Origin: Candidatus Magasanikiibacteriota bacterium
GTDB taxonomy: Bacteria > Patescibacteriota > Patescibacteriia > Magasanikbacterales > GWA2-37-8
Length of the DNA stretch: 50,680 bases
Assembly (NCBI GenBank): GCA_046590235.1
Contig: JBKJTY010000011.1
Span: 1 to 50,680, forward strand
Reading direction: 5' to 3'
The notes under the pieces: model-generated
What the model was told of the DNA's origin: nothing
The model's input: the letters and a program-made list of their open reading frames with translations, nothing else
Database searches by the model: none
Part shown: positions 8,269 through 32,769 of the stretch, piece by piece
Position numbering within the stretch: the first letter of the stretch is position 1
Layout: each line of letters starts with the position of its first letter
Made by a program: the position numbers and the translations under genes

Positions 8269-8360
8269 ATTATTTCAATGCACCATGTAATGATGCAATA
8301 AAGTAGTGCGAGTGGGCCGTCGAGCTTGCGTTCGCTCGACGGCACCTCCCAAGGAAAGAA

Positions 8361-8903
8361 CTAGTACGACCACCTGATCCCGAAAAATTCGGGTTCGAAG
8401 TTGATGATATACATCGCCACCGGTATTGCCACGGAAAGTGCTGCGCCGACAATGAGCACGGCCGCTTTGGTAAAGCCGGTGAAGCGACCCTTCGCCCCGA
8501 AGAACGTGGCGGCGCACATCCCGATCATGAGGAAGGTGCACATGAACGCGCCTGACTTGTCGAGGATAAACAGGTTGGTCACTGGCTCCTCAACGACTTC
8601 GGACTTGAACCGCTGGTTGAAGCGGGTGTCGTAAGGTTCCGTGGTGATCGGTGCCGACATGGGCGTGGCGGGGATCACGATCGTCTCCACCGGCGTGGGT
8701 GGGATAGGCGGCAAGATCTCCCTGATCTCCTGGCGCACTTGCTCGGTAGTAGTCGGTTTGGAAACGGTGTTCTTGGCCGTTTTAGGCTTAGCAACGATCT
8801 TTTTCTCGACTTTGCCGGTCTTTTTTGTCGTAACCGCCTTCTTGGCCGGCTTCTCGACCTTTTGCTGAACGACTTTCTTCACCGTTTCTTGCTTTTGACG
8901 CAT
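8361..8903 (-). CDS. Hypothetical protein: Lys/Ala/Val-rich N-terminus, Pro/Thr linker, two C-terminal TM helices
   Basis: GC-rich ORF with its own promoter (8948-8976) and a 3' hairpin (8316-8343). Confidence 0.65.
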   Translation of the reverse strand: MRQKQETVKKVVQQKVEKPAKKAVTTKKTGKVEKKIVAKPKTAKNTVSKPTTTEQVRQEIREILPPIPPTPVETIVIPATPMSAPITTEPYDTRFNQRFKSEVVEEPVTNLFILDKSGAFMCTFLMIGMCAATFFGAKGRFTGFTKAAVLIVGAALSVAIPVAMYIINFEPEFFGIRWSY

Positions 8904-8947
8904 TCGCCCCCCCCCGGAGTGTGTAAGATGGTAAAAGAGCTATTTTT

Positions 8948-8976
8948 ACCGTAGCAAAGGCGGGAAGAGGCGTCAA
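8948..8976 (-). promoter_or_regulatory. Sigma70-type promoter
   Basis: TTGACG-17 nt-TACGGT on the minus strand, with TG extension. Confidence 0.5.
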
Positions 8977-8983
8977 GACGTTT

Positions 8984-9017
8984 AAAAACAAAACTCCACG
9001 TTGAATCGCGGAGTTTT
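8984..9017 (-). terminator. Intrinsic terminator
   Basis: minus strand AAAACTCCGCG-attcaa-CGTGGAGTTTTgTTTTT. Confidence 0.7.
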
Positions 9018-9027
9018 GAAGTTGTGG

Positions 9028-9085
9028 CACATGGCCCTCGTTATGGCTACAAGTAATTATAGCTATAACGAGTAGGGGCCATGTG
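9028..9085 (-). other. Long bulged stem-loop in 3' UTR
   Basis: CACATGGCC-[CCTA]-CTCGTTATAGCTA-loop-TAGCCATAACGAG-GGCCATGTG on the minus strand. Confidence 0.65.
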
Positions 9086-9120
9086 TGAGCGCCCCGTCGT
9101 CCCGGTTGGGGAAGGGGTAG

Positions 9121-9645
9121 TTATGGAACGATGCCGCTACCTTGCCTTTTTGACAGGGTATCAATCGCCTTGTCGATGTTCTTGTCGAGCAGGTTCAGCT
9201 CTTTCTGTGTGAGCGGTCGATTGCCTGTGTCGTCGTTGCTTGGAACAAGCTGCTTTAGTTTTTGAATCTCAGCTTGTGCGGCCAGAAGGGCTTCTTCAGC
9301 CGCTTTCTTCTCCTCCGCCAACTTGTCGAAGCTCTTGAGAGTTTCCTTGAACGACTTTGACGTCTCGGCGATCGAATCGGCCATTCGGACCATTCGTTCG
9401 TCAGTCATCTTTGAGTTGACCAGCCCCAGTCGGTCGGAGCTCTCTTCGCACTGCTTGTGGAGATCCCTCGCGTTGTGGATGTCTTGGATCATATCATGTT
9501 TGGATCCGAGGGGGTTTGACGTCAGGTCGACGTGCAGACCCATGAACACGAGCGCCATTTGGCACGAATCGGCGCTGAGATCCTTCTTGGGGTTGTTGCA
9601 GCCGAGCACGAACAGGGAAGCGAGCAGAACGATGGAAAGGCGCAT
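9121..9645 (-). CDS. Hypothetical lipoprotein with coiled coil
   Basis: MRLSIVLLASLFVLGC lipobox; SD AGAAAGGA; GC-rich. Confidence 0.7.
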   Translation of the reverse strand: MRLSIVLLASLFVLGCNNPKKDLSADSCQMALVFMGLHVDLTSNPLGSKHDMIQDIHNARDLHKQCEESSDRLGLVNSKMTDERMVRMADSIAETSKSFKETLKSFDKLAEEKKAAEEALLAAQAEIQKLKQLVPSNDDTGNRPLTQKELNLLDKNIDKAIDTLSKRQGSGIVP

Positions 9646-9724
9646 TAGCCAATCCTTTCTGGCGGGGTTGCCGCCTGTGGTCGTACAGGGCTTGTACGTT
9701 GTTGATCGGTAGGATCAACACATG

Positions 9725-9753
9725 AGTGTACTTAAAAACTAGCTTTTTGTCAA
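9725..9753 (-). promoter_or_regulatory. Sigma70-type promoter
   Basis: TTGACA-17 nt-TACACT on the minus strand. Confidence 0.7.
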
Positions 9754-9823
9754 GGCTTGTTAACCCCTGTTCAAATCAGCATTTTTCCTCTATACTAAAG
9801 CCATATACACTATTCTTTAACGT

Positions 9824-10858
9824 ATGCTTAGCACAAAACAATATTTCGCGGAGGCAATCAAAAAAGAGGCTTCAGACGTACATTTGGTAGGTGATGAACT
9901 TCCAATGCTTCGTGTGGAAGGTGAGTTGGTTGTACTTGATGAGAAACCGCTTAAAAATAAAGAGCTGGAGACAGCTATTTTTGGATTGTTAAGTAAAGAG
10001 CAGATACAAAAATACCAAGAAGAATTAGAGCTTGATTTTGGCTACGAGCAAGACGGTGCTCGTTTCCGTATTAATTTGCATCAAGAACAAGAAAGAATCG
10101 GCATGACCGCGCGTCTTATTCCGCAAACTATCCCAACACCGGAAGATTTACGTTTTGAACCAGCCTTAAAAGATTTCACCAATCTTCTCGATGGTTTGGT
10201 TTTGATTACTGGTCCAACAGGCAGTGGTAAATCAACTACGATTGCTTCGATGATTGAAGAAATTAACAAGACCAGAAAATCACATATCGTAACTGTTGAA
10301 GATCCGATTGAGTTTGTTTTTGAAGATAAAAAATGTTTAATTGAACAACGAGAAGTAGGAACTGATACAAAATCATTTGCCAACGCACTTAAATATGTTT
10401 TGCGTCAGGATCCAAATATTATCTATGTAGGTGAAATGCGCGACCCCGAAACCATCGCAACAGTTTTGACCGCTGCAGAAACAGGTCATTTGGTTTTCTC
10501 CACTTTGCATACCTCCAGTGCAGCAGAAGCGATCGAACGTATCGTGGATGTCTTTGAGGGTTCAAAACAAAAACAAATTTTGATCCAGCTCTCTAGTGTT
10601 TTACGTGGTGTAGTGGCTCAGCAGTTGATCCCATCAAAAGATGGTGGTCGCGTGCCAGCACGTGAAATTCTCATTAACACATCTGGGGTTGCGAACTTGA
10701 TACGTGAAAATTCCTCTAGCCAAATGAAGTCTGCTATTCAGACTGGCGGAAAAGACGGTATGGTCTCTATGGAAAACTCTATTAAACAATTACTCAAAGA
10801 AGGATGGATTACTGAGGAACAAGCCTCTAATCGAACGGGACGGGCTAAAAAGGCCTAA
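9824..10858 (+). CDS. pilT: Type IV pilus retraction ATPase PilT/PilU family
   Basis: GPTGSGKST, TVEDPIEF, LRQDPNIIYVGEMRD, AETGHLVFSTLHT, ANLIRE. Confidence 0.88.
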   Translation: MLSTKQYFAEAIKKEASDVHLVGDELPMLRVEGELVVLDEKPLKNKELETAIFGLLSKEQIQKYQEELELDFGYEQDGARFRINLHQEQERIGMTARLIPQTIPTPEDLRFEPALKDFTNLLDGLVLITGPTGSGKSTTIASMIEEINKTRKSHIVTVEDPIEFVFEDKKCLIEQREVGTDTKSFANALKYVLRQDPNIIYVGEMRDPETIATVLTAAETGHLVFSTLHTSSAAEAIERIVDVFEGSKQKQILIQLSSVLRGVVAQQLIPSKDGGRVPAREILINTSGVANLIRENSSSQMKSAIQTGGKDGMVSMENSIKQLLKEGWITEEQASNRTGRAKKA

Positions 10859-10865
10859 TCAATTT

Positions 10866-12350
10866 ATGAACAATCTTCCGAATCTATTTACGGTCATTAA
10901 AGATGTAAGTGAAAAAATGGACGCGCCTATCTATGTAGTTGGCGGATATGTCCGTGATGTTTTACTTAAAAAAGAATTAAAAAAAGACATTGATTTTGTT
11001 GTCGTTGGCAGCGGCCTAGTTTTTGCGAAGGCGCTCGATGAGGCGCTGAATAAAGAGGGGAGACTCATTGAGTTTCCAGATTTTGATACTGCGCGTTATT
11101 TGATATCACTCAATGATATTGCAGTGGGAGACGAGGGTGCGGAAGTGCTTGAGCTTGAATTCGCCGGTGCACGATCTGAAACCTACGATGAAAAATCACG
11201 CAAACCAAAAGTTAGTTCCGCGACACTTGAACAAGATTTATCTCGTCGTGATTTCACCGTAAACGCCATGGCAGTGCCGGTGGAAGTATTCGCAAAGAAA
11301 AAAGCTCCAGCTCTCACAACTGTAGTTAAAAATATTATTGATCCTTTTAACGGCCAAAAAGATTTGGCTGATTTAATTATCCGTACACCCCTTGATCCAA
11401 ACATCACCTTTAGTGATGATCCGCTCCGCATGCTCCGCGCGGTCCGTTTTGCTGCCAAACTAAACGCTTCTATTGAGCCAAAAACACTTCAAGCGATTCA
11501 TGACAACCGTGAACGCATGAAGATTATTTCAGCGGAACGCACCCAAGAAGAACTCTTCAAATTACTTGGTACTAAGATGCCGTCCATTGGTCTCGCACTG
11601 ATGTTTCAGACGCACTTACTCGATGTAGTTTTGCCGGAAGTCTCAAATCTTGATGGTGTTGAAGAAATTTTTGGGCACCAACATAAAAATAATTTAACCC
11701 ACTCCTTTAAAGTCGTTGATAACGTGGCAGAGCAGTCAAATAAAGTCTGGCTTCGTTTGGCAGGCCTTTTACACGATATTGGTAAGCCAGGGACAAAACA
11801 GTTTGTGGAAAAAATTGGTTGGACTTTCCATGGACATGAACATCTTGGTAAAAAAATGCTATACGCGATTGCTAAACGACTAAAGTTCTCAAAAGATTTA
11901 ACTGATTACTTAGCTAAATTAATTCGCTGGCATCTGCAGCCGATCGCCCTAATGGATGATGGGATTACAGATTCTGCCGTTCGCCGTCTCATCGTAGCTC
12001 TTGGGATTGAAATCAACGATCTGCTTATTTTAGGACGTAGCGATATCACGACAGGTAATCCTTATAAAAAAGAAAAACGTCTCAAGAATTACGACTACCT
12101 AGAAAAACGCGTTGCAGAGGTAATTGAAACAGATAAAATGTTAGCCTTCCAGTCTCCGGTACGTGGTGAAGAAATTATGGAATTGTGCAAGTTAAAACCA
12201 GGTCCAACAGTTGGTAAAATTAAAACTGCCATTGAAGAAGCGATTTTGGATGGTATTATTCCGAATGAGTACGAACCGGCAAGAGCTTATTTCGAAAAGA
12301 TAAAAGATTCCTATCTTGAAAAAGCAGCGGATTGGGAAAGACTTAGCTAG
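10866..12350 (+). CDS. cca: CCA tRNA nucleotidyltransferase with HD domain
   Basis: VGGYVRD, DIDFVV, RRDFTVNAMA, DDPLRMLRAVRF, LLHDIGKP. Confidence 0.9.
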   Translation: MNNLPNLFTVIKDVSEKMDAPIYVVGGYVRDVLLKKELKKDIDFVVVGSGLVFAKALDEALNKEGRLIEFPDFDTARYLISLNDIAVGDEGAEVLELEFAGARSETYDEKSRKPKVSSATLEQDLSRRDFTVNAMAVPVEVFAKKKAPALTTVVKNIIDPFNGQKDLADLIIRTPLDPNITFSDDPLRMLRAVRFAAKLNASIEPKTLQAIHDNRERMKIISAERTQEELFKLLGTKMPSIGLALMFQTHLLDVVLPEVSNLDGVEEIFGHQHKNNLTHSFKVVDNVAEQSNKVWLRLAGLLHDIGKPGTKQFVEKIGWTFHGHEHLGKKMLYAIAKRLKFSKDLTDYLAKLIRWHLQPIALMDDGITDSAVRRLIVALGIEINDLLILGRSDITTGNPYKKEKRLKNYDYLEKRVAEVIETDKMLAFQSPVRGEEIMELCKLKPGPTVGKIKTAIEEAILDGIIPNEYEPARAYFEKIKDSYLEKAADWERLS

Positions 12351-12351
12351 A

Positions 12352-12380
12352 TTGACAATACCATACATCATCATTATAAT
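12352..12380 (+). promoter_or_regulatory. Consensus sigma70 promoter of the exporter operon
   Basis: TTGACA-17 nt-TATAAT. Confidence 0.8.
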
Positions 12381-12410
12381 TGAACATTCCTGACTATTTA
12401 CATTATATAT

Positions 12411-13976
12411 ATGAAGAAAAAGATTATCATCAGTGCGATCGCCGTGCTGGTTGTCGGCGGAATTGGACTTAATAGTTATATAAAAGCTAATAAGCCCCCA
12501 GAATACGAAACAGTTACCGTTACTAAGGGTACTGTAAGACAAACGGTAGACGCCACGGGTAAGGTGCAATCAACTAACAATCTTAATTTACGATTTGAAG
12601 TTCCAGGTATCATTGCTACAGTAAATGTCCGTGAAGGTCAGGCAATTAAACGTGGGACAATCATTGCAAGCCTACGTCTGGCAGATCTCAATGCTTCTGT
12701 GGCGCAAGCTCAAGCAAACTTGAATCTTAAATTAGCTGGTGCGACCGAACAAGATAAATTATATTACAAAGCAGCGCTAGATTCAGCAAAAGCTTCTTTA
12801 GAGCAGGTTGAAAATGGTACAAGCTTAATTACAACACAAGCATACGAGAATTTGGTAACTACACTACAAGCTGGCAGTCCAAAACTCGACGATGCTTTAA
12901 CACAAGCTGATAACATTTTAGGTATTGATAACGCAGCTGCAAATGAAGGTTTTCGAACAATATTATCAAGTCTCGATTCTTCAAAAATTGGCCTGGCTAC
13001 CATTCGTTATCCAATTGCTAAGAATGACAATATAAATGTGCGCGTTAAAGCTGCTGCACTTACACCTCAATCAAATTTTGGTGATATTGATGCTGGCGCA
13101 ACCCTTGGATTAAAAGCCTTACAAAGTATGAATGAACTTTTGATTGCGGTATCAGATGTTTTGCGAGCTACTCCACCGCAAGGTTCGTTAACACAAGCTA
13201 CACTTGATGCAAAAAAATCCACAATCGAAACAACCAGAACTACCATTAACACGCAATATGCTGCCTTGCTTGGGAAAAAGCAAGCTATTGATTCTTCTAA
13301 AACGACTTTAGCCCAAAAGCAAGCAGCATACGATCAGGCGCTAGCGAATTATCAAAGTAAGATTCTTCCACCACGAGAAGTCGATGTTGCATCGTATCGC
13401 GCTGCTTTATCACAAGCTATTGCGAGTCGTAACAAAGCAATTATCATTGCCCCAATTGACGGTGTAGTTACTAAATTAAACAGCAAAATTGGCGAAACAG
13501 TTTCCGGCGCTGACACGATTGTTCAGCTTTTAGCTCCGCAGTATCAGATTGAAGTAGATATTCCTGAAACAGATGTGTCCAAAATAAAATTGGATGATTC
13601 CGTAGTGATCACATTAGATGCATTTGGTGATGACGTGAAATTAAGTGGCAAAGTAGTTGATATTGAACCAGGTGCAACTGAAGTACAGGATGTTGTTTAC
13701 TATAAAGTTACTGTTAGCTTGAATACTGATAACAAACCAGTAAAACCAGGTATGACAGCAAACATTGCCGTAAATACGGTAGAAAAAGAAAACACATTGG
13801 CTATTCCGCTCCGCACTGTCCGCACTCGCGAAGACGGTACGAAGTATGTTCGTATACTCGAAAATAACCAAGAAAAAGAAGTGACCGTAAAACTTGGCTT
13901 CAGAGCTGATGAAGGAAAGGTTGAAATTACAGAAGGTTTACAAGAAGGCCAGCAAGTTATTATCTCAGTTAAATAA
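12411..13976 (+). CDS. Periplasmic adaptor (MacA/HlyD-like) subunit
   Basis: N-terminal TM, long coiled coil, IAPIDGVV, VKPGMTA, VEITEGLQEGQQVI. Confidence 0.88.
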   Translation: MKKKIIISAIAVLVVGGIGLNSYIKANKPPEYETVTVTKGTVRQTVDATGKVQSTNNLNLRFEVPGIIATVNVREGQAIKRGTIIASLRLADLNASVAQAQANLNLKLAGATEQDKLYYKAALDSAKASLEQVENGTSLITTQAYENLVTTLQAGSPKLDDALTQADNILGIDNAAANEGFRTILSSLDSSKIGLATIRYPIAKNDNINVRVKAAALTPQSNFGDIDAGATLGLKALQSMNELLIAVSDVLRATPPQGSLTQATLDAKKSTIETTRTTINTQYAALLGKKQAIDSSKTTLAQKQAAYDQALANYQSKILPPREVDVASYRAALSQAIASRNKAIIIAPIDGVVTKLNSKIGETVSGADTIVQLLAPQYQIEVDIPETDVSKIKLDDSVVITLDAFGDDVKLSGKVVDIEPGATEVQDVVYYKVTVSLNTDNKPVKPGMTANIAVNTVEKENTLAIPLRTVRTREDGTKYVRILENNQEKEVTVKLGFRADEGKVEITEGLQEGQQVIISVK

Positions 13977-17198: not shown

Positions 17199-17199
17199 C

Positions 17200-17229
17200 A
17201 AAAAAGAGACTCATCTGAGTCTCTTTTTT
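17200..17229. terminator. Bidirectional intrinsic terminator
   Basis: aaaaaagagactca-tc-tgagtctctttttt. Confidence 0.82.
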
Positions 17230-17321
17230 AAACTGCTGGCCTCGTGATACTAAGGACAATAGTTTGAGGGTCGGGCGCGTCAGTCGTGGTGACTGACGCG
17301 CCCTTCCGGTTGAAAGATCAA

Positions 17322-17606
17322 TTACATGATCGGGAGGGTCGGCCTGCGACGCTCTGACTCGGGCACAGGTCCTGCGATGGGGCCTCTGGCGAGTCGGTCG
17401 AGCCGATGGTATTCGTAGTGCCTGTTGACCACGACGACGACCTTCACGACAGCGAGGATCACACCAACGGACCAGAGTCCGATGTTCATGACATCTGGCC
17501 GAACGGAAAAGATCCAGTGCAGGAAAATATCCACCAGGAACGTCAGAATAATTCCCCAGACGATCCAGAACGCGGTGGGCTTACCAAACGCCTTGTTGGT
17601 ACGCAT
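17322..17606 (-). CDS. Small hypothetical membrane protein (2 TM)
   Basis: GC-rich 94-aa ORF, purine-rich RBS, 13-bp perfect hairpin downstream (17273-17303). Confidence 0.6.
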   Translation of the reverse strand: MRTNKAFGKPTAFWIVWGIILTFLVDIFLHWIFSVRPDVMNIGLWSVGVILAVVKVVVVVNRHYEYHRLDRLARGPIAGPVPESERRRPTLPIM

Positions 17607-17812
17607 GCGAACCTTCTTTCGGTCTCCGTCTGCCAGGCAAACGGGATGGAAGGGGGCGGTGAGGACTTACGCAGCGATGTCCACTGGACATCTTGGAGTA
17701 CACCCGGGTGGGTATATCCTTTAGCACCTCATGCCTTGTTTCAAGCCTATAGTATTAGCTTGCGCAAAATTTATACTATCTGAAATACAAACTTTATGCA
17801 AGTTAACGGATA

Positions 17813-17841
17813 AGTATAGCATAAAAACGGCCTTTTGTCAA
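17813..17841 (-). promoter_or_regulatory. Sigma70 promoter, giving a ~200-nt leader
   Basis: TTGACA-17 nt-TATACT with TG extension on the minus strand. Confidence 0.75.
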
Positions 17842-17878: not shown

Positions 17879-17907
17879 AAAAAACCGCAGAAATATGCGG
17901 TTTTTTT
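17879..17907 (-). terminator. Intrinsic terminator of the HD1 unit
   Basis: aaaaaaccgca-gaaata-tgcggttttttt. Confidence 0.75.
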
Positions 17908-17912: not shown

Positions 17913-17990
17913 TCATCGCCACCAGGCTGGTTACTAGGGTAGTAAACAACATGGTAGGTAAGCGACGATGTATTGTGCCCCCTTTCCACC
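17913..17990 (-). ncRNA. Candidate conserved structured 3'-UTR element (copy after HD1)
   Basis: Aligns with 18822-18897 and shows compensatory base changes. Confidence 0.6.
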
Positions 17991-18002: not shown

Positions 18003-18704
18003 TTACGCAGCGCGCTTCTCCTCAGGAACATTAGCATGGTTGGTCAGGAAATCAGTTGCCCAGGTATGCATCTCAGGTGTCCAGATCTCGTCGAAACCGG
18101 GGATTTTCTTGGCATAGTGCGCCATCTCGTCGATCTGCTTGCGAAGCACGTGGGTCAGGATGACCTCGTCTCCATGCACCACGAACGATTCTGAGGCGTA
18201 CTTGATGTAGTCGAGCCGTTCAAGCGCCGCAAAGATCAGAGCTTCATGCGAGTACTTCTCCTTCAGGGCGTTCATTACTACTCGTGCATCGTCCGGGAAA
18301 AGGTGATTGTCCCCCAGGCAGAACTGGAGAAGAAACGCTGCTTCGAGTCGTTCGCGAACGTCATCATCCAAATCCTGGATGCGTCGACGAAAGCCTAGAA
18401 ACTCTTGGACGTCGATCTCTTGCCGCTTGTTGATAAACGGCGTGTCGTGACCGATCTCGCCCTCACCAATGTCATGCAAGTGAATGCAGGACAGGATAAG
18501 CTCATTATCGAGCTTTGGAAAGTGCCACTGGAGCTTTGGCAAAGCGGTCATGGCAAGAAACATGAACGCGTACGTGTGCTCCAGGTTGGTCTGCCCGCGG
18601 AGTGCCTGGTTACGAGCCCGATGATTTCCCCAGCGGAAAACCTTGGTAAGACTCGTCTGAAAATGTGTCCAGACGCCGAGAAGGGCAAGGAACGATTTCG
18701 TCAT
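18003..18704 (-). CDS. YfbR-like HD-domain phosphohydrolase (HD1)
   Basis: LTKVFRW, QTNLEH, LHDIGEG..GHD, LERLD; SD AAAGGAG. Confidence 0.82.
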   Translation of the reverse strand: MTKSFLALLGVWTHFQTSLTKVFRWGNHRARNQALRGQTNLEHTYAFMFLAMTALPKLQWHFPKLDNELILSCIHLHDIGEGEIGHDTPFINKRQEIDVQEFLGFRRRIQDLDDDVRERLEAAFLLQFCLGDNHLFPDDARVVMNALKEKYSHEALIFAALERLDYIKYASESFVVHGDEVILTHVLRKQIDEMAHYAKKIPGFDEIWTPEMHTWATDFLTNHANVPEEKRAA

Positions 18705-18746
18705 GTTGTTCTCCTTTCGGGAGAGTGTGGGTGGGATTGCGTTAGC

Positions 18747-18775
18747 AGACTATCAGTTTACCGCTACTTTGACAA
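18747..18775 (-). promoter_or_regulatory. Promoter of HD1
   Basis: TTGTCA-17 nt-TAGTCT on the minus strand. Confidence 0.55.
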
Positions 18776-18784
18776 GTTAAAAAT

Positions 18785-18810
18785 AAAAACACGCCCAAAG
18801 GCGCATCTTT
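18785..18810 (-). terminator. Intrinsic terminator of the HD2 unit
   Basis: minus strand atgcgcc-ttt-gggcgtg-tttttattttt. Confidence 0.6.
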
Positions 18811-18821
18811 ATAATTGGCTT

Positions 18822-18897
18822 TCATCGCCACCACGCTTATCACTATTTATTAGTGAGAAGCATGGTAAGGAGGCGACGAAGATTATTCGTTTCCACC
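18822..18897 (-). ncRNA. Candidate conserved structured 3'-UTR element (copy after HD2)
   Basis: Aligns with 17913-17990; 7-bp basal stem, 5' bulge, 16-bp upper stem. Confidence 0.6.
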
Positions 18898-18920
18898 AAA
18901 CCATTCTCGTGCCGTTTAGA

Positions 18921-19640
18921 TTAAGCGGCGACGATCTCAAGCTTTTCGGGCGGAATGTCCTTGTGTTCGTCGAGGAACTTGAGCGAACGGATCCGCTCAT
19001 CGTGGGTCCAGATCGTGGCGGACTGGTCGCAGCTCTTTGCGAGCTTATCGAGCTCCGGCAACAAGTTCCGGAGCACATGCACATGCATCGTGCGCGCTTC
19101 GTAGAGCGTGTCCATGTCAGCGGCGTAGCAAACCGCTTGGTAGGCCTCGATGGTTTTGAAAACCAGCGCTGCCGTGCGATAGTGCGCGTGCTGCTGCATG
19201 TGTCCCTGCATGATCTCCTTGGCCGAATCAGGAAAGTTCTGGGGCATGTTGACGCTGAGCGGCAAGAGGTAGTAACTCTCAAGACGCGCTCGATCGTCCT
19301 TGGGCAAGCCTTCGGTCAGCTCGAGGAAGGCGTTGTACTCGTTCAGGTCGTGTTCAGGCGTACGGTCACGGTGGGGGATGTCCCGGCCCTCACCCACGTC
19401 CTTGGCGTAGATGTGCTGGCCGAGGTAGTGCATCGCGAGCGACTTGAGGACGATGTCGCCGCTCACGATGTTCGTCCGGTTAACGCGCTCGAGAATGGGT
19501 ACTGCCATGATGAGGAGCTGGCCGACATGTTCGGCCACTGACTGCGGTTGCAGATCGTACAGATCCGTATAATTACTCCACCGAAAAACTCGGCTGAGCC
19601 GTTCGCGTGCCCAACGCATCTTCCGTGTCTCTGACAACAT
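18921..19640 (-). CDS. YfbR-like HD-fold paralogue with degenerate HD motif (HD2)
   Basis: LSRVFRW, QSVAEH retained; HD replaced by HYLGQ...KDVGEG; SD GGAGG. Confidence 0.78.
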   Translation of the reverse strand: MLSETRKMRWARERLSRVFRWSNYTDLYDLQPQSVAEHVGQLLIMAVPILERVNRTNIVSGDIVLKSLAMHYLGQHIYAKDVGEGRDIPHRDRTPEHDLNEYNAFLELTEGLPKDDRARLESYYLLPLSVNMPQNFPDSAKEIMQGHMQQHAHYRTAALVFKTIEAYQAVCYAADMDTLYEARTMHVHVLRNLLPELDKLAKSCDQSATIWTHDERIRSLKFLDEHKDIPPEKLEIVAA

Positions 19641-19682: not shown

Positions 19683-19711
19683 AGTTTAGTCCCATTAGTA
19701 GCGGCTGTCAA
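19683..19711 (-). promoter_or_regulatory. Promoter of HD2
   Basis: TTGACA-17 nt-TAAACT on the minus strand. Confidence 0.7.
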
Positions 19712-19753: not shown

Positions 19754-21547
19754 ATGTCCGACACGCAAGTTATCAAAGACCGCCTCGATATTGTCCAAAT
19801 TATTGGCGAATACATCACTGTCAAAAAGGCGGGCACGAATTGGAAAGCAAACTGTCCGTTCCATCACGAAAAAAGCCCCTCCTTTATGGTGCACCAGGAT
19901 AAACAAATCTGGCATTGTTTTGGTTGTGGCAAAGGCGGCGATGTATTTTCTTTTGTCCAAGAAATTGAAGGCATGGATTTTCCGGAAGTATTAAAATTAC
20001 TTGCTAAACGCGCTGGTGTTGAGATTGCTGCGTATAAATCTGATGGAGATAACGGACTTCGAGCACGATTGTTAGAAATTAATTCTACTGCTGCCTATTT
20101 TTTTCATCACATGCTCCTTGAAATGGAAGCATCAAAAGCTGCTCGCGACTATTTAGAACGACGCCAAGTTAAACCGGAAACAATTAAGGACTGGCAAATT
20201 GGTTTTGTTCCAGACCAGTGGGAACTTCTCACAAAATATTTAGTTAAAAAAGGATACGCCCTCGAAGACATGGTAACGGCTGGCCTCACTATCAAACGTG
20301 AAGGTGCTGATGTGCAAACGGGCAAAGGTTATTACGATCGTTTTCGTGGCCGTGTTATGTTTCCAATTTCAGATGCGCACGGAAACATCGTGGGCTTCAC
20401 GGGTCGCGTATTAGTTGAGACAGAAACATCGGGCGGTAAATATGTAAATACACCGCAATCACCGCTGTACGACAAGTCTAGAGTCTTGTACGGCATACAC
20501 AAAGCAAAGACAGCAATCAAATCCAAAGATCTTGCCGTGCTGGTAGAAGGCCAAATGGATGTGGTTGCTTGTCATCAGGCAGGGATGACTAATGTTGTTG
20601 CTGCTTCGGGCACCGCTCTAACTGCCGAACAAATTAAATTATTAAAACGATATACACCAAACATTGCAATGGCCTTTGACGCGGACGCTGCAGGGCAAAA
20701 TGCTGGCAAGCGTGGTATTGGAATTGCTATGGAAGAGGGGATGAATATTCGTGTTATTCAAATCCCACCAGGTTTTGCAAAAGATGCTGATGAATGTTTG
20801 AAAAAAGATTCGGCAGTGTGGTTTAAAGCCGTTGAAGGTGCGAAAGGTGTCATGGATTGGTATTTCGCTGTTACACTTTTGAATCTCAACCGTAATGATC
20901 CTAAGAGAAAGCAGGAAGCCGCAGCGCTACTCCTCACAGAAATTGCGCGTATTCCGTATGCAGTTGAGCGCGATGAATGGGTTAAACGACTAGCCGAAGA
21001 ATTAGCTATTGAAGTTAGTATTCTTCGTACTGAACTAAAAAAATTAAATGTGGCTACAAAGCCTACGGCTAAAGCCGCTCCAGCTGCGCCGACTGCGCCC
21101 GTAATTGCGATCCCCCAGAGCCTTCTTGATCAGTTTGGGCAGGAGCTTTGGTCACTGCTCTTGAAATATCCGCAAGAATATGGAAAACTACGTGAAAAGC
21201 TCAAACCGGGGTATTTTGAGGATGGAGCCATCCGAAGCCTTTACGAAACCGCAGAAAGCTTCTATAATAAGGACACAAACCTAGATTTAGAGGCTTTACG
21301 GCATTATTACCATAAAGAAGGTCTGGAAAACAGCATAGATATCCTCCTTTTAAAGCCGTATAAGAACTTTGATGAGATCAACCCGGCTGAAGCTGGGAAA
21401 GAGTTACAGACGATAGTTGAGCGTTTAAAAGAAGAGTGGCGCAAACGGCGCGGTAAGGAAATTGCCCGGGAACTTAGTTTAGCTGAGAAATCCGGCGATA
21501 AGGCAACGCTCGAAAAACTCTTTATAGAATTACAAACATTACAATAA
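19754..21547 (+). CDS. dnaG: DNA primase
   Basis: [11 protein letters not shown]...HCFGC zinc finger, [32 protein letters not shown]. Confidence 0.97.
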
Positions 21548-24845: not shown

Positions 24846-24926
24846 ATGCTAGGGAAAGAGCCCGATATCCGCTTTGTAGCACTCGCGATTGCGATTGGCG
24901 TAATCGCTGCAGCGTTCATCAAATAA
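24846..24926 (+). CDS. 26-aa single-TM small protein (not in the ORF track)
   Basis: GGAGG-5 nt-ATG; MLGKEPDIRFVALAIAIGVIAAAFIK; TTTACA-17-TACGCT promoter upstream. Confidence 0.55.
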   Translation: MLGKEPDIRFVALAIAIGVIAAAFIK

Positions 24927-24936
24927 GGAGATGGAC

Positions 24937-25110
24937 ATGGATGATCCTGCAACACGAAACGAGGAGACTGGTTGGTGGTGGTTGGTAAGAGACTTATTTC
25001 TTACCGCTGTCGCGCTTAGTTTGATAACTATCGTTTGTATCGTGCTGTACGATCACTACACTTCTGCGGACAAAGGCGTAGTCCTTGCGTCCAGAGAGGA
25101 ACAAGAATAA
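24937..25110 (+). CDS. 57-aa single-TM small protein (not in the ORF track)
   Basis: TAAGGAG-6 nt-ATG; MDDPATRNEETGWWWLVRDLFLTAVALSLITIVCIVLYDHYTSADKGVVLASREEQE. Confidence 0.6.
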   Translation: MDDPATRNEETGWWWLVRDLFLTAVALSLITIVCIVLYDHYTSADKGVVLASREEQE

Positions 25111-25215
25111 TGCGAATTCTAAAGCCACGGGGCGAAGCAGGTTTATCTTCATCGCCCCAGTGTCTTATGTCTGTGATTATCGTAGATATAAGATACTTAA
25201 ATCGCGTTAGATACT

Positions 25216-27875: not shown

Positions 27876-27876
27876 T

Positions 27877-28359
27877 ATGGCAGAAACTATTTTCGGTATC
27901 AAAGGCGGGCCTATTGCAGGTGTAGAAGTCCAGCGATTATCAGTTATCCCCGATGAGCGTGGAGCTATTTATCACATGCTACGTAACGATAGTCCATTAT
28001 TTGAAAAATTTGGTGAAATCTATTTCTCAAAAGCTAATCCAGGTGTAATTAAAGCTTGGCACATCCACAAAGAAATGACCTTGATGTATTCTGTGGTTGT
28101 AGGTATGGCAAAGTTGGTGCTGTATGATGATCGAGAAGGCAGTCCGACCAAAGGCAATCTGATGGAATTATGTGTCGGTGAAGAAAATCGCTTATTAGTT
28201 AAAGTACCGCCATTGGTTTGGAACGGGTTTAAGTGTATTAGCACAACACCTGTTATTGTGGCTAATTGCGCCACCTTACCACACGATAAGAATGAAATAG
28301 ATCGTTTGGATCCATTTTCTCCTACCATTCCGTACTCATGGGATTTAGTCCATGGTTAA
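27877..28359 (+). CDS. RmlC-like cupin sugar-nucleotide epimerase
   Basis: PDERG, KAWHIH, LYDDREGSPT, VPPLVWNGF. Confidence 0.82.
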   Translation: MAETIFGIKGGPIAGVEVQRLSVIPDERGAIYHMLRNDSPLFEKFGEIYFSKANPGVIKAWHIHKEMTLMYSVVVGMAKLVLYDDREGSPTKGNLMELCVGEENRLLVKVPPLVWNGFKCISTTPVIVANCATLPHDKNEIDRLDPFSPTIPYSWDLVHG

Positions 28360-28362
28360 AAT

Positions 28363-29469
28363 ATGCAATCGTTTTATAACGGTAAAAAAGTTCTGATAAC
28401 TGGTCACACGGGTTTTAAAGGTGGGTGGTTGACGCGAGTGCTTACCAAATGGGGTGCACGCGTTGTTGGCGTTTCATTGCCGGCGCACACTGAACCAAAT
28501 ATTTTTACTGTTGTAGGTTTGAAAAATACTTTAACTAATTACGAAGCAGATATTACAGATGATGTGGCAATGGTAGATATTTTTAAAAAAGAGCAGCCTG
28601 AAATAGTTTTTCATTTAGCAGCGCAAGCTTTGGTACGCGACAGTTATGATAATCCAGAATTAACCCATAAAACTAATATTCTCGGCACAGCTCATATTTT
28701 AAAAGCGATACGCGTAGTACCGTCAGTGCAGGCAGCTGTAATTATTACGACAGATAAAGTTTACCACAATGATGAGCAAGGAAAGCCCTATAAAGAAACT
28801 GATCCACTGGGTGGTCATGACCCGTATAGCGCGAGTAAAGCTGCCGCTGACCTTATCACAGCATCCTATATCCATTCTTTTTTCCATCCAGAAAAATATG
28901 GTTTAAAGCATAAAACACTAATAGCCTCAGCTCGATCCGGTAATGTATTTGGCGGAGGTGATTGGTCAAAAGATCGTTTAATTCCAGATATTGTTCGGGC
29001 CGTATATCATGATAATGCGCCTGTGATAATTCGTAACCCACAAGCTATCCGTCCTTGGCAGCACGTACTTGAGCCAATAGCAGGCTACTTACAATTAGCT
29101 AAAAAACTGCATGAAGGAGACGTTTCAAGTGGTGGAGCATGGAACTTTGGCCCGCACGATGAATTAAGTTGTACAGTAGAAGAAATGGTTAAACAAGCCT
29201 TAATTACTCTAAATAAAGGTGCATATGTGCTAGTGCCGGATGTGTCAAAGTCAGAAGCTGGCTTGCTCAGATTGGACAGTTCAAAAGCGCGAGCGCAATT
29301 AGGCTGGGAATCAAAATTAGACTTAATTACGTCATTAAAATGGACGTTCGATTGGTACCGCCGGCATTACGAAGATAACAGTGCGCTTGAAGAAATGGAT
29401 CGACAAATAGAAGATTATTTTTCACCTCACCTTACAGTCAGCGTTACTAAGACAATCAGTCAAGCTTAA
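28363..29469 (+). CDS. rfbG: CDP-glucose 4,6-dehydratase
   Basis: ITGHTGFKGGWL, FHLAAQALVRDSY, TTDKVY, DPYSASKA, RPWQHVLEP, WNFGP. Confidence 0.95.
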   Translation: MQSFYNGKKVLITGHTGFKGGWLTRVLTKWGARVVGVSLPAHTEPNIFTVVGLKNTLTNYEADITDDVAMVDIFKKEQPEIVFHLAAQALVRDSYDNPELTHKTNILGTAHILKAIRVVPSVQAAVIITTDKVYHNDEQGKPYKETDPLGGHDPYSASKAAADLITASYIHSFFHPEKYGLKHKTLIASARSGNVFGGGDWSKDRLIPDIVRAVYHDNAPVIIRNPQAIRPWQHVLEPIAGYLQLAKKLHEGDVSSGGAWNFGPHDELSCTVEEMVKQALITLNKGAYVLVPDVSKSEAGLLRLDSSKARAQLGWESKLDLITSLKWTFDWYRRHYEDNSALEEMDRQIEDYFSPHLTVSVTKTISQA

Positions 29470-29552
29470 AGCTTGACTTTTTGTTAATAAAATGCTAAGA
29501 TTTTGGGCTTCTTGGCCCCCCGTAAGGGCTGGAGCAATACGAGGGAAACGAA

Positions 29553-30119
29553 ATGGATAAGGATGAGGCATTATGGATTCTCAATGAAGGGGATTCGACA
29601 AGTATGCAGTTTCGTGAGGCGATTGCTTATTTCCAGAACCTGCTCGACCCCAAGGCTCCGGCCGGAACGGTGCTCTGCAATGCCATCATGCGCATCTGGC
29701 CGACCCCGGCTTTCGAGGGTGTACTGTTGCGCGAGGTCAATGGCGAATACCAGGTCTACTTGCGTCGTCGGGCTGAGAACGAAGCCTACCCACTTCAATA
29801 CCACTCTCCCGGCGTGCTTTACTGCAATGCGGACGAGTCCGACGAGACCGCGGCCAAACGCCTCTTCGAGGAGTTTGGTTGCGAATTCGACTACGAACAG
29901 ATCGATTCGTTGGTGGTTAATGATGTGCGTGGGCGACTGCGATCAGTGATCTATCTGCTCACCACTCGAAGCGAACCTCGTCTCGATGAGCGTCACGGAT
30001 GGTTCCCGGTGAACCGTTTGCCGGAGAAAACCATAGAGCATCACCGTCTCCAGGTGATTCCGCGTGCTGTGGCTAAGGTCATGGTTCGAGCCAGCAGGGC
30101 GAAGTGTGGTGATAAATGA
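29553..30119 (+). CDS. Nudix-fold hydrolase, GC-rich insertion
   Basis: VYLRRR, HSPG...DESDETAAKRLFEEFG degenerate Nudix box; promoter TTGACT-17-TAAGAT at 29473-29501. Confidence 0.65.
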   Translation: MDKDEALWILNEGDSTSMQFREAIAYFQNLLDPKAPAGTVLCNAIMRIWPTPAFEGVLLREVNGEYQVYLRRRAENEAYPLQYHSPGVLYCNADESDETAAKRLFEEFGCEFDYEQIDSLVVNDVRGRLRSVIYLLTTRSEPRLDERHGWFPVNRLPEKTIEHHRLQVIPRAVAKVMVRASRAKCGDK

Positions 30120-30262
30120 GGATGTTGGGCCCCGGTGGAAAGTCATTCTTGACGAGTACACCGGGGCTATTCTATTTGTAAAGGTAAACCGTTGCTTTTT
30201 TAAGCAAAAAGTGGTACTGTGCAAGTACTTACTAGCCTGTTTTCGTACAGCAAAAAGGATTT

Positions 30263-31585
30263 ATGAATGATCAATTAAAAGGACTTTTGGAAGCAGATTA
30301 TCGCGAACATTTTCCAGTTAAAAAATTTATTCCAGGCCAATCCATCGTACCTGTCTCAGGCAAAGTTTTTGATGAGCATGAAATTGTGAATGCTACAGAA
30401 GCAGTGCTCGATGGCTGGTGGACAGACGGACGATTTAGCGCATCTTTTGAACATCGCCTGGCAAAATGGCTAGGGGTATCTTTTGCTTGCTTGGTTAATT
30501 CAGGTTCTTCGGCAAATTTAATCGCGGTAACGGCACTTACATCACTCAAACTAGGTGAGAAAAGGCTAAAGCCAGGTGATGAAATTATTACTGTTGCGGC
30601 CGGGTTCCCAAGTACCGTCAATCCGATTGTGCAAAACCGGTTAGTGCCTGTTTTTGTCCATGTTGATCTAGGTACCTATAATGCAAATATCGAAGAGGTA
30701 AAAAAAGCGATTTCGCCAAAAACGCGCGCAATTATGATCGCGCATACGCTTGGTAATCCTTTTCACTTAGAAGCAATAGCCGAGCTTTGTGCAAAACACG
30801 ATCTCTGGTTAATTGAAGATAACTGTGACGCGCTTGGTTCACGTTATAACGGTAAAAAAACCGGCACATTTGGACAGATTGCTACGTGCAGTTTTTATCC
30901 GGCACATCACATTACTATGGGTGAGGGCGGGGCAGTATTTACTAACGATTCACGTCTATATAAAATTATTGAATCAGTACGTGATTGGGGACGTGATTGT
31001 TGGTGTCCAACTGGCAAAGATAATACCTGCGGTAAGCGCTTCTGTTGGCAGCTCGGTACACTTCCAGTCGGCTACGATCATAAATATACCTACTCCGAAA
31101 TGGGGTACAATTTGAAAGCGACTGATATTCAAGCAGCCATTGGTTTGGCACAACTTCAAAAGGTAGATTCATTTATTGAGAAAAGAAAAGAAAACTTTAA
31201 CAGGCTTTTTGAAGGATTAAAACAGTATGAGTCTTCCTTCATATTACCTCAGTGGGAGCCGAGTGCGGAGCCAAGCTGGTTCGGGTTTCTTCTGACGGTG
31301 CGTACCGATGCATCATTTTCGCGTGAAAGTATTATTAAATTTCTGCAAGAGAAAAAAATCGGAACGCGTTATTTGTTCGCTGGTAACTTACTCCGTCAGC
31401 CGTATTTTGCTGAGCGCAAAGATATCGAGTATCGAGTTATCGGCGACTTAAAAAATACAGATATCGTAATGAATAATACATTTTGGGTTGGATGTTATCC
31501 AGGGCTAACGTCTGAGATGATAACGTATATGATCGATTCTTTTAAGGAATTCATGGAACAACAATCGTTAAATAAGCCAGCATAA
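30263..31585 (+). CDS. rfbH: CDP-4-keto-6-deoxyglucose 3-dehydrase (E1, DdhC/RfbH)
   Basis: EDNCDALG, SFYPAHHITMGEGG (His in place of Lys), RDCWC...NTC, YDHKY. Confidence 0.95.
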   Translation: MNDQLKGLLEADYREHFPVKKFIPGQSIVPVSGKVFDEHEIVNATEAVLDGWWTDGRFSASFEHRLAKWLGVSFACLVNSGSSANLIAVTALTSLKLGEKRLKPGDEIITVAAGFPSTVNPIVQNRLVPVFVHVDLGTYNANIEEVKKAISPKTRAIMIAHTLGNPFHLEAIAELCAKHDLWLIEDNCDALGSRYNGKKTGTFGQIATCSFYPAHHITMGEGGAVFTNDSRLYKIIESVRDWGRDCWCPTGKDNTCGKRFCWQLGTLPVGYDHKYTYSEMGYNLKATDIQAAIGLAQLQKVDSFIEKRKENFNRLFEGLKQYESSFILPQWEPSAEPSWFGFLLTVRTDASFSRESIIKFLQEKKIGTRYLFAGNLLRQPYFAERKDIEYRVIGDLKNTDIVMNNTFWVGCYPGLTSEMITYMIDSFKEFMEQQSLNKPA

Positions 31586-31595
31586 TCGTATAAAC

Positions 31596-31625
31596 AAAAA
31601 CACTCTCAAAATGAGAGTGTTTTTT
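31596..31625. terminator. Bidirectional terminator
   Basis: aaaaacactctca-aaa-tgagagtgtttttt. Confidence 0.8.
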
Positions 31626-31638
31626 AATTATGTTACTA

Positions 31639-32109
31639 TTATTCTTCGCTTTCAAAATCTTCTGGAATAGGCATGAGTAAAGCACCAACTTTTGTTTTGC
31701 CGATATCGAGCGTGAACACGATGAGGTGTGTTTCACTTTGACCGCCAACTCCGTAAGCGCCATCTTCTTCTGGGCCGGATTCAGTCTTGAAACCATCTTT
31801 CTTAAGCATGTTTTCGATTGCTGTAATATCTTTTTGTGTTACTGTGCGTGAAACGTTATATTCAATACCTGTTGCCCCTTTGACTGGGAAGTCGTTGAGG
31901 AATGAAGTAATTTTTGCTTCACCAAACGTTTTCTTGACGTATGATTCCAAAACTTTTGCATTGTCAGTCGGATTAGTAACTTTAATGCCAGATCCACCGT
32001 CATTGTTTGTTTGCTTAGTTTCAGTTGTGTTAGAGTTGGAACAGCCTGCGCCGGTTAGTGTGAGCAAAGTCACTACTCCAGCAGCTGCTAAGAATCTTTT
32101 TATTTGCAT
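31639..32109 (-). CDS. Secreted/lipoprotein-like hypothetical protein, paralogue of 24193-24708 (start moved to 32109)
   Basis: MQIKRFLAAAGVVTLLTLTGAGCS; FGEAKITSFLNDFPVKG. Confidence 0.78.
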   Translation of the reverse strand: MQIKRFLAAAGVVTLLTLTGAGCSNSNTTETKQTNNDGGSGIKVTNPTDNAKVLESYVKKTFGEAKITSFLNDFPVKGATGIEYNVSRTVTQKDITAIENMLKKDGFKTESGPEEDGAYGVGGQSETHLIVFTLDIGKTKVGALLMPIPEDFESEE

Positions 32110-32191
32110 AATCATACAATATAAATAGTAAATCATACTTAAGTATAACACATCACTATTGGTAGAACAAATAAAAACAGCCCGAAAGCTG

Positions 32192-32253
32192 TTTTTCAAT
32201 GTGGGTTGCCGGGGGCTCAAACCTAAGACCTTATCCTTAAAAAGGGTACGCTC
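32192..32253 (-). pseudogene. Decayed copy of the 3' part of tRNA-Lys plus downstream flank (att-like scar)
   Basis: ttttcaatgtgggttgccgggggctcaaacctaagaccttatccttaaaaaggg versus ttttcaatgtgggtcggccggggctcgaacccgggaccttatccttaaaaggg at 32761-32813. Confidence 0.85.
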
Positions 32254-32396
32254 AAATAATCAGGTGCGCAAAACTAAAAACATCCGTCGTAATAACGGAT
32301 GTTTTTGTATCTCTTGACGCCAGAGGTCTGACGTAAAAGGATAAGGATCGGCCGGAGATAAGCGCCAACCCTCATCATACTTGAGAATTGGTGGGT

Positions 32397-32657
32397 TTAG
32401 CGCGTTAGCCGTCGCCCGAGGGTGAACGAGCCGAACGATGTTAGTCCAAACCCGACACTAAAGGCAAGGCCTTTGAGCGCGCGGGCGTAGTGCCAGTCGT
32501 GTCGCGGGTCAATCGGCGAGTTTCCGAGTAAATACTCGAAAAAACACCAGAATGCTGCGAGTACGCATGCGATAAGCATGATTGCGCTGAAAATGTGTAA
32601 ATTAATTGCAAAAAACTGCTTCACTTCACTTTCAGGGCGATTGATTACGGTAGGCAT
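32397..32657 (-). CDS. Small membrane protein (2 TM)
   Basis: SD AGGAGGAG; promoter TTGACT-17-TATAAT at 32702-32730. Confidence 0.65.
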   Translation of the reverse strand: MPTVINRPESEVKQFFAINLHIFSAIMLIACVLAAFWCFFEYLLGNSPIDPRHDWHYARALKGLAFSVGFGLTSFGSFTLGRRLTR

Positions 32658-32769
32658 TAGCTCCTCCTAGAGCATGGTTAGCGGTAACGAATCAATGAAA
32701 CATTATAGCATAAAAATGCCCAAAAGTCAATGGTAAACAAAAACCCCCTAAACTAGGGGGTTTTCAATG

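Follow-up and report, generated by a model that had tools for sequence, protein, structure and literature searches.

A single contig of a Candidatus Magasanikiibacteriota genome (JBKJTY010000011.1; 50,680 nt, or 50.7 kb, analysed as a whole and called the window below) carries short GC-rich genes that are preceded by Shine–Dalgarno (SD) sequences and lie among AT-rich genes that are not. Genes of this kind recur throughout the genome. We consider it somewhat probable, with a chance of roughly 55%, that these units belong to a maintained, separately translated and fast-evolving accessory class of about 80 genes, which is SD-led where the ordinary genes are not. A maintained separate class is more likely than a collection of freshly captured foreign cassettes. 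Both ideas had been raised in an initial annotation, which listed eight such units in the window and attributed them either to a common donor pool or insertion route, with cassette-like capture of genes, or to a separately regulated gene class.

A genome-wide class with its own start signals

The genome (G000; other G numbers denote sampled relatives in the order) is a 917-kb draft in 38 contigs, with 42.5% GC and an estimated completeness of 95.6%. The named genomes found with RpoD are all distant, the closest being a Falkowbacteria MAG at 60% identity. All genome-wide statistics given here come from G000 alone, and relatives were examined one locus at a time in small samples. Genes were called greedily under two codon models, one for long AT-rich open reading frames (ORFs) and one for ORFs rich in GC at third codon positions (GC3), and the start codons are those of our own calls. 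The genome-wide survey of GC3 and SD scores that had been proposed in the initial annotation proved informative: it delimited a GC-rich class (‘R’ genes) of 79 among 881 genes (~9%), distributed over 28 of the 38 contigs, and uncovered the stepwise change of start signals described below.

R genes differ from the remaining, or core, genes in GC content (0.53 versus 0.42) and in GC3 (0.67 versus 0.37), and their median length is 149 aa. Resolved by codon position, class and core values are 0.56 versus 0.52 for GC1, 0.38 versus 0.37 for GC2 and 0.71 versus 0.37 for GC3. Codon choice differs in the same direction; for example, AAG accounts for 78% of Lys codons in the class and 29% in the core, and CTC plus CTG for 66% and 22% of Leu codons, respectively. 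Nearly all of the GC excess of the class is synonymous. Translational selection for C-ending codons was rejected as a cause because the class includes almost no genes for the translation apparatus and because G- and C-ending codons both rise. Likewise, a GC-rich mutational equilibrium combined with an AT-selected core was discarded, since the DNA between genes is AT-rich. G-ending codons are readable, as C34 species are numerous among the 40 tRNA genes found. As a side observation, the stop codons TAA, TAG and TGA are used in proportions of 51, 32 and 17% by the class and 76, 17 and 7% by the core.

The islands formed by these genes measure 0.3–1.6 kb and are located inside long contigs. Members encode lipoproteins, small proteins with two transmembrane (TM) segments, an NhaA antiporter, a cold-shock protein, response regulators, a DUF488 protein and many orphans, and six of the ten longest class genes lack a Pfam domain. 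Nearly all are singletons, the sole paralogous pair in the genome being the HD-domain genes HD1 and HD2 of the window. R genes are antisense to both neighbours more often than core genes (23% versus 6%).

SD strength, start context and 3′ folding did not enter into the definition of the class, and all three separate R genes from core genes. The strength of SD sequences was scored as the predicted pairing energy with the tail of the 16S ribosomal RNA, using a main cut-off of -6 kcal/mol or stronger. By this measure 62% of R genes carry an SD, compared with 8% of upstream mock windows and 37% of ORF-internal windows; at -10 kcal/mol or stronger the corresponding values are 30, 1.4 and 9.6%. When only class genes with an ATG start are counted, 42 of 55 (76%) have an SD at the main cut-off. 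Genome-wide, SD-core 4-mers begin mostly 9 to 12 nt ahead of the start codon. Before core genes SDs are rarer than chance, occurring at 8.8% of starts versus 14.8% and 14.5% in mock windows, which bears out the earlier description of the core genes as SD-less. SD-like sequences inside ORFs, scored at -8 kcal/mol or stronger, were noted in 25% of sampled 17-nt windows in the class and in 7% of those in the core.

A second signal distinguishes the two sets of genes. A T immediately precedes the start codon (TATG) in 511 of 594 core ATG starts (86%), in 5 of 52 class starts (10%) and in 26% of internal Met codons, whereas C occupies this position in 56% of R-gene starts. The high frequency among core genes suggests that most of the core start calls are right. 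The core genes of the window belong to this pattern (for example, at 19754, 25216 and 30263). When genes are binned by GC3, bins below ~0.5 have U at -1, or U(-1), in 82–89% of genes and an SD in 5–13%, and those above ~0.5 have U(-1) in 9–30% and an SD in 60–83%. The two signals are anti-associated (odds ratio 0.08, p = 2e-24), and because both of them step at a GC3 of ~0.5, the class is discrete.

The initiator tRNA of G000 has A37. In E. coli, pairing between U(-1) and A37 has been demonstrated, and a U just ahead of AUG favours initiation (Hollerer and Jeschek, 2023, PMC10018350; Esposito et al., 2003, cited there). Four-base pairing that includes U(-1):A37 may be a main SD-independent start signal of the core genes. 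The same two-way start pattern is seen in all relatives examined, which are small samples. Specifically, a Falkowbacteria contig has TATG at five of six ATG starts, and in G064 T stands at -1 of core genes and a GC-rich Nudix-like gene has C at -1 plus an SD.

The ribosomal components also bear on how these signals might be read. The 16S 3′ end keeps the canonical anti-SD CCUCCU (GGATCACCTCCTTTCT, on contig C34), and the strongest SD in the genome, GAAAGGAAGGTGA at -17.9 kcal/mol, precedes rpsU, the gene for bS21 (C34:4690-4951). The motif GAAAnGGAGGTGA lies 4–7 nt upstream of the rpsU start, and all 20 relatives inspected, which represent 10 families, have kept it. Bacteroidia sequester their anti-SD with bS21, bS18 and bS6 (PMC7797042, PMC9976891), and among Bacteroidota autoregulation of bS21 by ribosomes without bS21 is marked by an SD at rpsU that is stronger than -13 kcal/mol (PMC9976891, PMC7797042). 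Three sequence hallmarks of the Bacteroidia system are present here, namely a canonical anti-SD, SDs below chance at ordinary starts and an exceptional rpsU SD.

The GC-rich composition coincides with the transcript rather than with the ORF alone. In an averaged profile, the GC-rich tract extends from ~30 nt before the start codon to ~60 nt past the stop codon, and GC then falls to 35–42%; promoters and distal U-tract terminators have the AT-rich composition of the backbone. Thus, the compositional unit is the transcript body. The first 70 nt past the stop codon of R genes fold with a mean energy of -23.2 kcal/mol (z of -3.8 relative to shuffles), compared with -14.2 kcal/mol for core genes, and 66% of R genes have a 3′ fold of -20 kcal/mol or lower. 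These 3′ hairpins form perfect GC-rich stems, each with a sequence of its own. When 76 3′ regions were compared all against all, blastn found no shared hairpin sequence, giving two trivial short matches, and no repeated palindrome family of the repetitive extragenic palindromic or bacterial interspersed mosaic element (REP/BIME) type was found among the hairpins, in which the element behind HD1 and HD2 is the sole repeat.

A Nudix-like gene near rfbH in several families of the order

One unit of the window can be followed over long evolutionary distances. The gene at 29553..30119 encodes a divergent Nudix-fold protein, and 23 of the 150 genomes sampled from the order have homologues, at 24–44% identity and sometimes in tandem. 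Gene context was examined in genomes from three families. In G001, where it has three copies, and in G062 and G075 the Nudix-like gene immediately precedes rfbH, and it adjoins the GT2 gene of the same glycan cluster in G064. The same three-ORF layout, with an ORF of 434–436 aa after the Nudix-like gene, recurs in G093, G137 and G071. RfbH is 69% identical between G000 and G062, whereas the Nudix-like proteins are 33–44% identical.

Despite this divergence, the compositional signature recurs. In five of six further genomes the homologue coincides with a sharp 500-bp spike of 58–63% GC, and in the sixth (G092) the value is 50–53%; the backgrounds are 29–47% GC and the six genomes span three families. 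The gene of G062 has a GC3 of 0.77. Orthologues from at least 7 genera keep an AGGAGG-type SD. It follows a leader hairpin, CTTYTnGnnCC-loop-GGnnCnARAAG, that lies just past the promoter and covaries across 7 genera. HD homologues of G009 are GC-rich and SD-led as well. Because synonymous sites are saturated at this divergence, the signature of one old transfer would have decayed. The spike therefore suggests either that composition has been maintained or that the gene has repeatedly been replaced from a GC-rich pool at the same site.

Two further features of these loci were recorded. Some relatives carry three tandem copies of the gene upstream of rfbH (G001:C6:55016-56912; also G002:C29 and G031:C4), and the AT-rich copy in G001 looks as if it had switched from one start dialect to the other. 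In G064 an AT-rich canonical Nudix hydrolase gene (G064:C1 2148-2606) directly adjoins the GC-rich Nudix-like gene.

The eight units of the window

The gene content of the window is typical of Patescibacteria, also known as the Candidate Phyla Radiation (CPR), and includes PilT, MacAB, DnaG-RpoD, MurG and a CDP-sugar/RfbH glycan cluster. Housekeeping genes (msc, pilT, macB, dnaG and rfbH) flank the class units. A sliding GC profile shows pockets of 50–60% GC at 8.0-9.7, 17.0-19.7 and 29.5-30.1 kb against a background of ~41%.

The codon model independently assigned six of the eight units to the GC-rich class (8361-8903, 9121-9645, 17322-17606, 18003-18704, 18921-19640 and 29553-30119). These six have a GC content of 0.53–0.58 and a GC3 of 0.62–0.77, compared with 0.36–0.46 and 0.28–0.45 for the adjoining genes. 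The other two fared less well: the unit at 32397-32657 is marginal, and that given as 24846-25110 had been misdelimited, the only open frame within it being a doubtful 59-aa ORF at 24931-25110. GC counts made by hand agree roughly with the computed values for HD2 (0.58) and the Nudix-like gene (0.55) and were too low for dnaG, which has 0.44 and not 0.38. The real frames are the minus-strand ORFs with the highest GC3 (0.62–0.77); a long plus-strand ORF at 18405-19541 was rejected as a gene because it is an antisense shadow of minus-strand ORFs.

Most structural features ascribed to the units in the initial annotation were seen again. Six of the eight lie on the minus strand among plus-strand genes, purine-rich SD-like motifs are present at all of them, and each has a GC-rich hairpin just past the stop codon and a separate U-tract terminator farther downstream. 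A promoter of its own had been assigned to every unit; sites resembling TTGAC(A/T)-17-TAnnnT (a 17-nt spacer and at least 9 of 12 matches) were found upstream of five, one of them ~207 nt away, and this part of the description did not hold for the remaining three.

The first unit (8361..8903, minus strand) encodes a 180-aa protein with a Lys-rich N-terminal part and a hydrophobic C-terminal part; its GC content is 0.55 and its GC3 0.76. Its leader has a G-run/SD-like sequence with A at -1, and a proximal 3′ GC-rich hairpin (8316..8343, minus strand) has a 10-bp stem without a U-tract. The product has no Pfam match and no homologue in 8 relatives. The neighbouring class gene (9121..9645, minus strand) encodes a predicted lipoprotein of 174 aa with an LFVLGC lipobox and a coiled-coil-like C-terminal part. 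It has the SD AGAAAGGA and A at -1. Its promoter-like site (9725..9753, minus strand; TTGACA-17-TACACT) is followed by a ~75-nt leader with three small hairpins, and its long 3′ hairpin (9033..9080, minus strand) is separate from the U-tract terminator at 8989-9018.

The gene at 17322..17606 (minus strand) encodes a small two-TM membrane protein of 94 aa; a congener has, in the corresponding slot, a small membrane protein to which it is weakly similar (E 0.006). The SD is GAAAGAAGG, with C at -1, and the proximal 3′ GC-rich hairpin (17273..17303, minus strand) is a 13-bp perfect stem without a U-tract, with the terminator at 17199-17230. The best promoter match of the region (TTGACA-17-TATACT with an extended TG) lies within 17607-17841 on the minus strand, ~207 nt upstream of this ORF, a distance that leaves room for a long leader, or for a small RNA or an ORF that has not been annotated.

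HD1 (18003..18704, minus strand; 233 aa; SD GAAAGGAGAA) and HD2 (18921..19640, minus strand; 239 aa; GC3 0.77; SD ACGGAGGT) are paralogues with 27% identity and both have C at -1. A promoter-like site of HD2, TTGACA-17-TAAACT, is present at 19683-19711 on the minus strand. A structured 3′ element of 78 nt follows HD1 (17913..17990, minus strand; terminator 17879-17906) and a copy of it follows HD2 (18822..18897, minus strand; terminator 18783-18812). In an alignment of the downstream regions that contain these 76–78-nt elements, mean column identity is 77%, compared with only 27% identity for the proteins. The element matches no Rfam family at gathering score. A conserved 3′ element was also looked for behind the HD homologue of G009 and was not evident.

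The doubtful ORF at 24931..25110 (plus strand) has a GC content of 0.47 and was not called a class member; its AAGGAG directly abuts the ATG, and a GC-rich hairpin is located at 25129-25158. The Nudix-like gene (29553..30119, plus strand; 188 aa; GC3 0.62) has the SD GAGGGA and A at -1, and its position upstream of rfbH is syntenic in genomes from at least three families. Its promoter-like site (29473-29501, plus strand; TTGACT-17-TAAGAT) is directly followed by the 5′-proximal leader hairpin (29505-29535, plus strand), and its proximal 3′ GC-rich hairpin lies at 30129..30167 (plus strand). Lastly, the marginal unit at 32397..32657 (minus strand; GC 0.51, GC3 0.56) encodes a membrane protein of 86 aa, with the SD AGGAGGAG, A at -1, a promoter at 32702-32730 (TTGACT-17-TATAAT) and a terminator at 32275-32307, both on the minus strand.

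Explanations for the class and comparison with known systems

A maintained class could be understood in terms of two start dialects. In the core dialect, AT-rich genes avoid SDs and start at UAUG after an AU-rich leader, with U(-1) probably pairing with A37 of the initiator tRNA. The second dialect is that of short, mostly stand-alone genes with a GC-rich body, a spaced SD, C or A at -1 and a strong 3′ stem-loop, set between ordinary AT-rich promoters of the sigma-70 type and U-tract terminators. We infer that the anti-SD is usually unavailable, as in Bacteroidia, where bS21, bS18 and bS6 hold it, and that the SD-led class would be translated via a separate lane whose capacity is set by those ribosomes in which the anti-SD is free. 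Long-lived mRNAs would result from the GC-rich body in combination with the SD and the terminal hairpins, and the composition would be kept by selection on the mode of expression rather than being a fading mark of import. Fast turnover of the class would then reflect some real gain and loss, together with divergence so great that homologues are no longer recognised. The alternative of a separately regulated gene class, as initially raised, fits these data, since the class is discrete and genome-wide, shows the same pattern in the small samples from relatives and includes a Nudix-like unit that is syntenic and retains both its GC spike and its SD.

A bolder version of this proposal, which we regard as doubtful, is a regulon based on ribosome heterogeneity. 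Ribosomes made SD-blind by bS21 would start at UAUG through four-base pairing with the initiator tRNA, and a subpopulation with a free anti-SD, perhaps without bS21, would translate the ~80 GC3-rich, SD-led and hairpin-stabilised mRNAs. These mRNAs would encode fast-evolving surface, membrane and nucleotide-handling proteins, the GC-rich dialect would be a selected mark of membership, and the accessory or host-interaction proteome would be switched globally by the level of bS21.

Several points weigh against a maintained and separately translated class. Membership was assigned partly by GC3 with our own gene caller. The anti-SD may simply be free in this organism, with SDs being needed by GC-rich structured leaders, and the proposal does not supply a mechanistic reason for GC-rich synonymous sites. 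Only a single family, that of the Nudix-like genes, gives direct evidence of long vertical retention, and even there the tandem copies in G001 have GC3 values of 0.62, 0.40 and 0.53, with T at -1 and no SD in the AT-rich copy. This spread, together with the absence of a clear SD, indicates that the traits are not strictly coupled. Furthermore, Flavobacteriales typically have a strong SD at rpsU alone, whereas about 40–45 further genes are SD-led here. Finally, near relatives lack homologues of 21 of the 25 class genes that were tested, which would also fit repeated import.

Ongoing horizontal acquisition from a GC-richer donor pool, be it host bacteria or mobile genes, with self-contained units entering at permissive intergenic sites, would make the GC content, the SDs and the hairpins without U-tracts donor features; we judge this unlikely as an account of the whole class, and import from an unsampled GC-rich pool is a live rival for its orphan majority. 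The case for it begins with turnover. Of the window units, seven out of eight had no detectable homologue in up to eight near relatives, from the same genus or nearby in the family; the same held for 14 of 17 additional R genes, and the NhaA class gene is absent from 7 of 7 relatives tested. The nearest relatives are distant (DnaG is 69% identical within the ‘genus’), however, and small fast-evolving proteins may escape recognition. Upstream of dnaG, different small GC-rich, SD-led membrane genes occupy the minus strand in G000, G001 (127 and 94 aa) and G003 (87 and 113 aa), and the gene flanking the slot is macB in G000 and G001 and a CCA-adding enzyme gene in G003. Only one pair of these small genes shows similarity (the weak match noted above), and the differences would fit either replacement or divergence beyond recognition. 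HD homologues of other genera sit at other loci. In addition, the 32397 unit is bracketed by an intact tRNA-Lys gene (32769-32842) and, 568 bp away, a partial copy (32193..32253, minus strand) that shares 82% identity with 32761-32821, a stretch made up of the 3′ 53 nt of the tRNA and the next 8 nt downstream. This arrangement looks like an integration-type scar that lacks an integrase. Since it is the only case in the genome of a partial tRNA copy adjoining a class gene, such copies were rejected as a general mark of insertion. Set against these points, no donor could be found. A database of 5.8 billion proteins was searched with two class genes only: the NhaA protein has no match above 50% identity, the named top matches including other CPR bacteria and Acidobacteria, and a word-based search with the Nudix-like protein returned no relative beyond the query itself. 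Phage records searched by tblastn with all eight units gave no match, so that the phage comparison suggested earlier came back negative, and no prophage context was found around the units, which have housekeeping flanks. Between 7400 and 33200 there are no boundary direct repeats beyond terminators, the tRNA copy and the HD element. As had been stated, the window has no integrase. The suggested look for a recombinase or reverse transcriptase elsewhere yielded no reverse transcriptase and a single tyrosine recombinase match (PF00589) in the genome, an Xer-like gene of core composition in a cell-division cluster. The hairpins are not one sequence family, and apart from HD1/HD2 no class gene is duplicated. 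The absence of donor or phage matches and mobility genes, together with the unique hairpins, argues against recent import from any sampled donor. Moreover, the GC excess is almost all synonymous, with GC1 and GC2 barely moved, and syntenic orthologues retain the GC spike across families at a saturating distance (RfbH 69%), where simple amelioration fails. Cassette-like capture from a common pool is thus not sustained as the general explanation, given unrelated hairpins, no att-like repeats, no dedicated recombinase or reverse transcriptase and no phage or donor match; what survives of the insertion idea is the scarcity of same-genus homologues and the one tRNA-Lys scar.

The remaining alternatives do without either import or a special translation lane. 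The signature could be a physical-chemical side effect, in which some genes are selected for stable, structured, GC-rich mRNAs, whose leaders could not use the SD-free, AU-rich route of entry and would so need an SD, and neither ribosome specialisation nor a regulon is involved. In Bacillus and E. coli, mRNAs are known to be stabilised by SD-like sequences (STAB-SD) and by stem-loops at their ends, and the confinement of the GC-rich tract to the transcript body, exclusive of promoter and terminator, the strong 3′ hairpins, and the 5′-proximal leader hairpins of the Nudix-like and 9121 units all agree with such a role. Because it leaves unexplained the avoidance of SDs below chance in the core, the conserved exceptional SD of rpsU and the fast-evolving orphan majority, we rate it slightly below donor-pool acquisition. 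GC-biased gene conversion at recombination hot spots of a naturally competent organism would raise both GC3 and substitution rate, and it draws some support from the mainly synonymous excess, from the coupling of high GC3 with fast protein divergence (33–44% identity for the Nudix-like protein where RfbH has 69%) and from genes of type IV pilus/competence type such as PilT. A GC3 step of +34 points that tracks transcript boundaries within tens of bases is nevertheless unlike conversion tracts, and the switch from U(-1) to SD is not predicted, which makes this process very improbable. Least credible of all is an assembly or binning artefact, that is, chimeric contigs holding DNA of a GC-rich organism. 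The genome is a 38-contig draft, presumably metagenome-assembled; yet the islands of 0.3–1.6 kb lie inside long contigs, are bounded by host promoters and terminators and recur at matching syntenic positions across many genomes that were assembled independently.

If the existence of a maintained, separately translated class is correct, SD-blind translation with autoregulation of bS21 would reach from Bacteroidia to the CPR, a feedback loop of one gene would have grown into a possible regulon of tens of genes, and four-base UAUG recognition would be a main start signal instead of a minor modulator. GC-rich islands in CPR genomes should not be labelled by default as recent transfers or contamination, and gene callers for such genomes need two start models, one for UAUG without an SD and one for SD-led starts. 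The class also offers a short, sequence-defined list of candidate host-interaction genes in organisms that are very hard for genetics.

The units share traits with several known types of mobile or acquired DNA. In the amelioration model of acquired islets (Lawrence and Ochman), foreign composition decays with time, and the islets are usually AT-richer than the core. The likeness lies in atypical composition, in small accessory or orphan genes whose distribution seems patchy and in a single unit that adjoins a tRNA gene of which a segment is duplicated. In contrast to such islets, the units are GC-richer than the core and come without detected donors or mobility genes; contrary to amelioration, their signature lies at synonymous sites and is retained by syntenic orthologues in different families. 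Integron cassettes and clusters of attC sites lacking integron-integrases (CALINs) also have an ORF led by a ribosome binding site and directly followed by a hairpin, and the GC-rich tract of the present units likewise leaves out the promoter. However, attC sites are imperfect hairpins with R″/L″-L′/R′ boxes and a GTTRRRY core, whereas the hairpins here are perfect and unique and have no shared R/L boxes. Integrons also have an IntI-type tyrosine recombinase, with attI and a Pc promoter beside an array, and their cassettes stand in tandem in one orientation; neither IntI nor arrays are seen here, where the units are scattered singly and in either orientation over 28 contigs. Moreover, integron cassettes are promoterless, and five of the eight window units have a promoter-like site of their own and each has its own terminator. 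Phage morons, which are autonomous promoter-gene-terminator units, resemble the present units in being self-contained, of differing composition and inserted between genes of an unrelated operon, but no prophage context or phage homologue was found here, and at least one unit is an old syntenic resident.

A different kind of likeness is offered by the SD-blind ribosomes of Bacteroidia (Jha et al., 2021, PMC7797042; McNutt et al., 2023, PMC9976891), with which this genome shares a retained anti-SD, rare SDs at ordinary genes and a strong SD at rpsU. The organism belongs to another phylum, Patescibacteria, and any sequestration of its anti-SD is putative. Unlike in Bacteroidia, the SD-led genes also use GC-rich codons, and the start context of core genes is U at -1 instead of upstream adenines. 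Whereas the U(-1):A37 pairing is a modest modulator in E. coli (PMC10018350), which like this organism has A37, U(-1) is present here at 86% of core starts and at 10% of those in the SD-led class.

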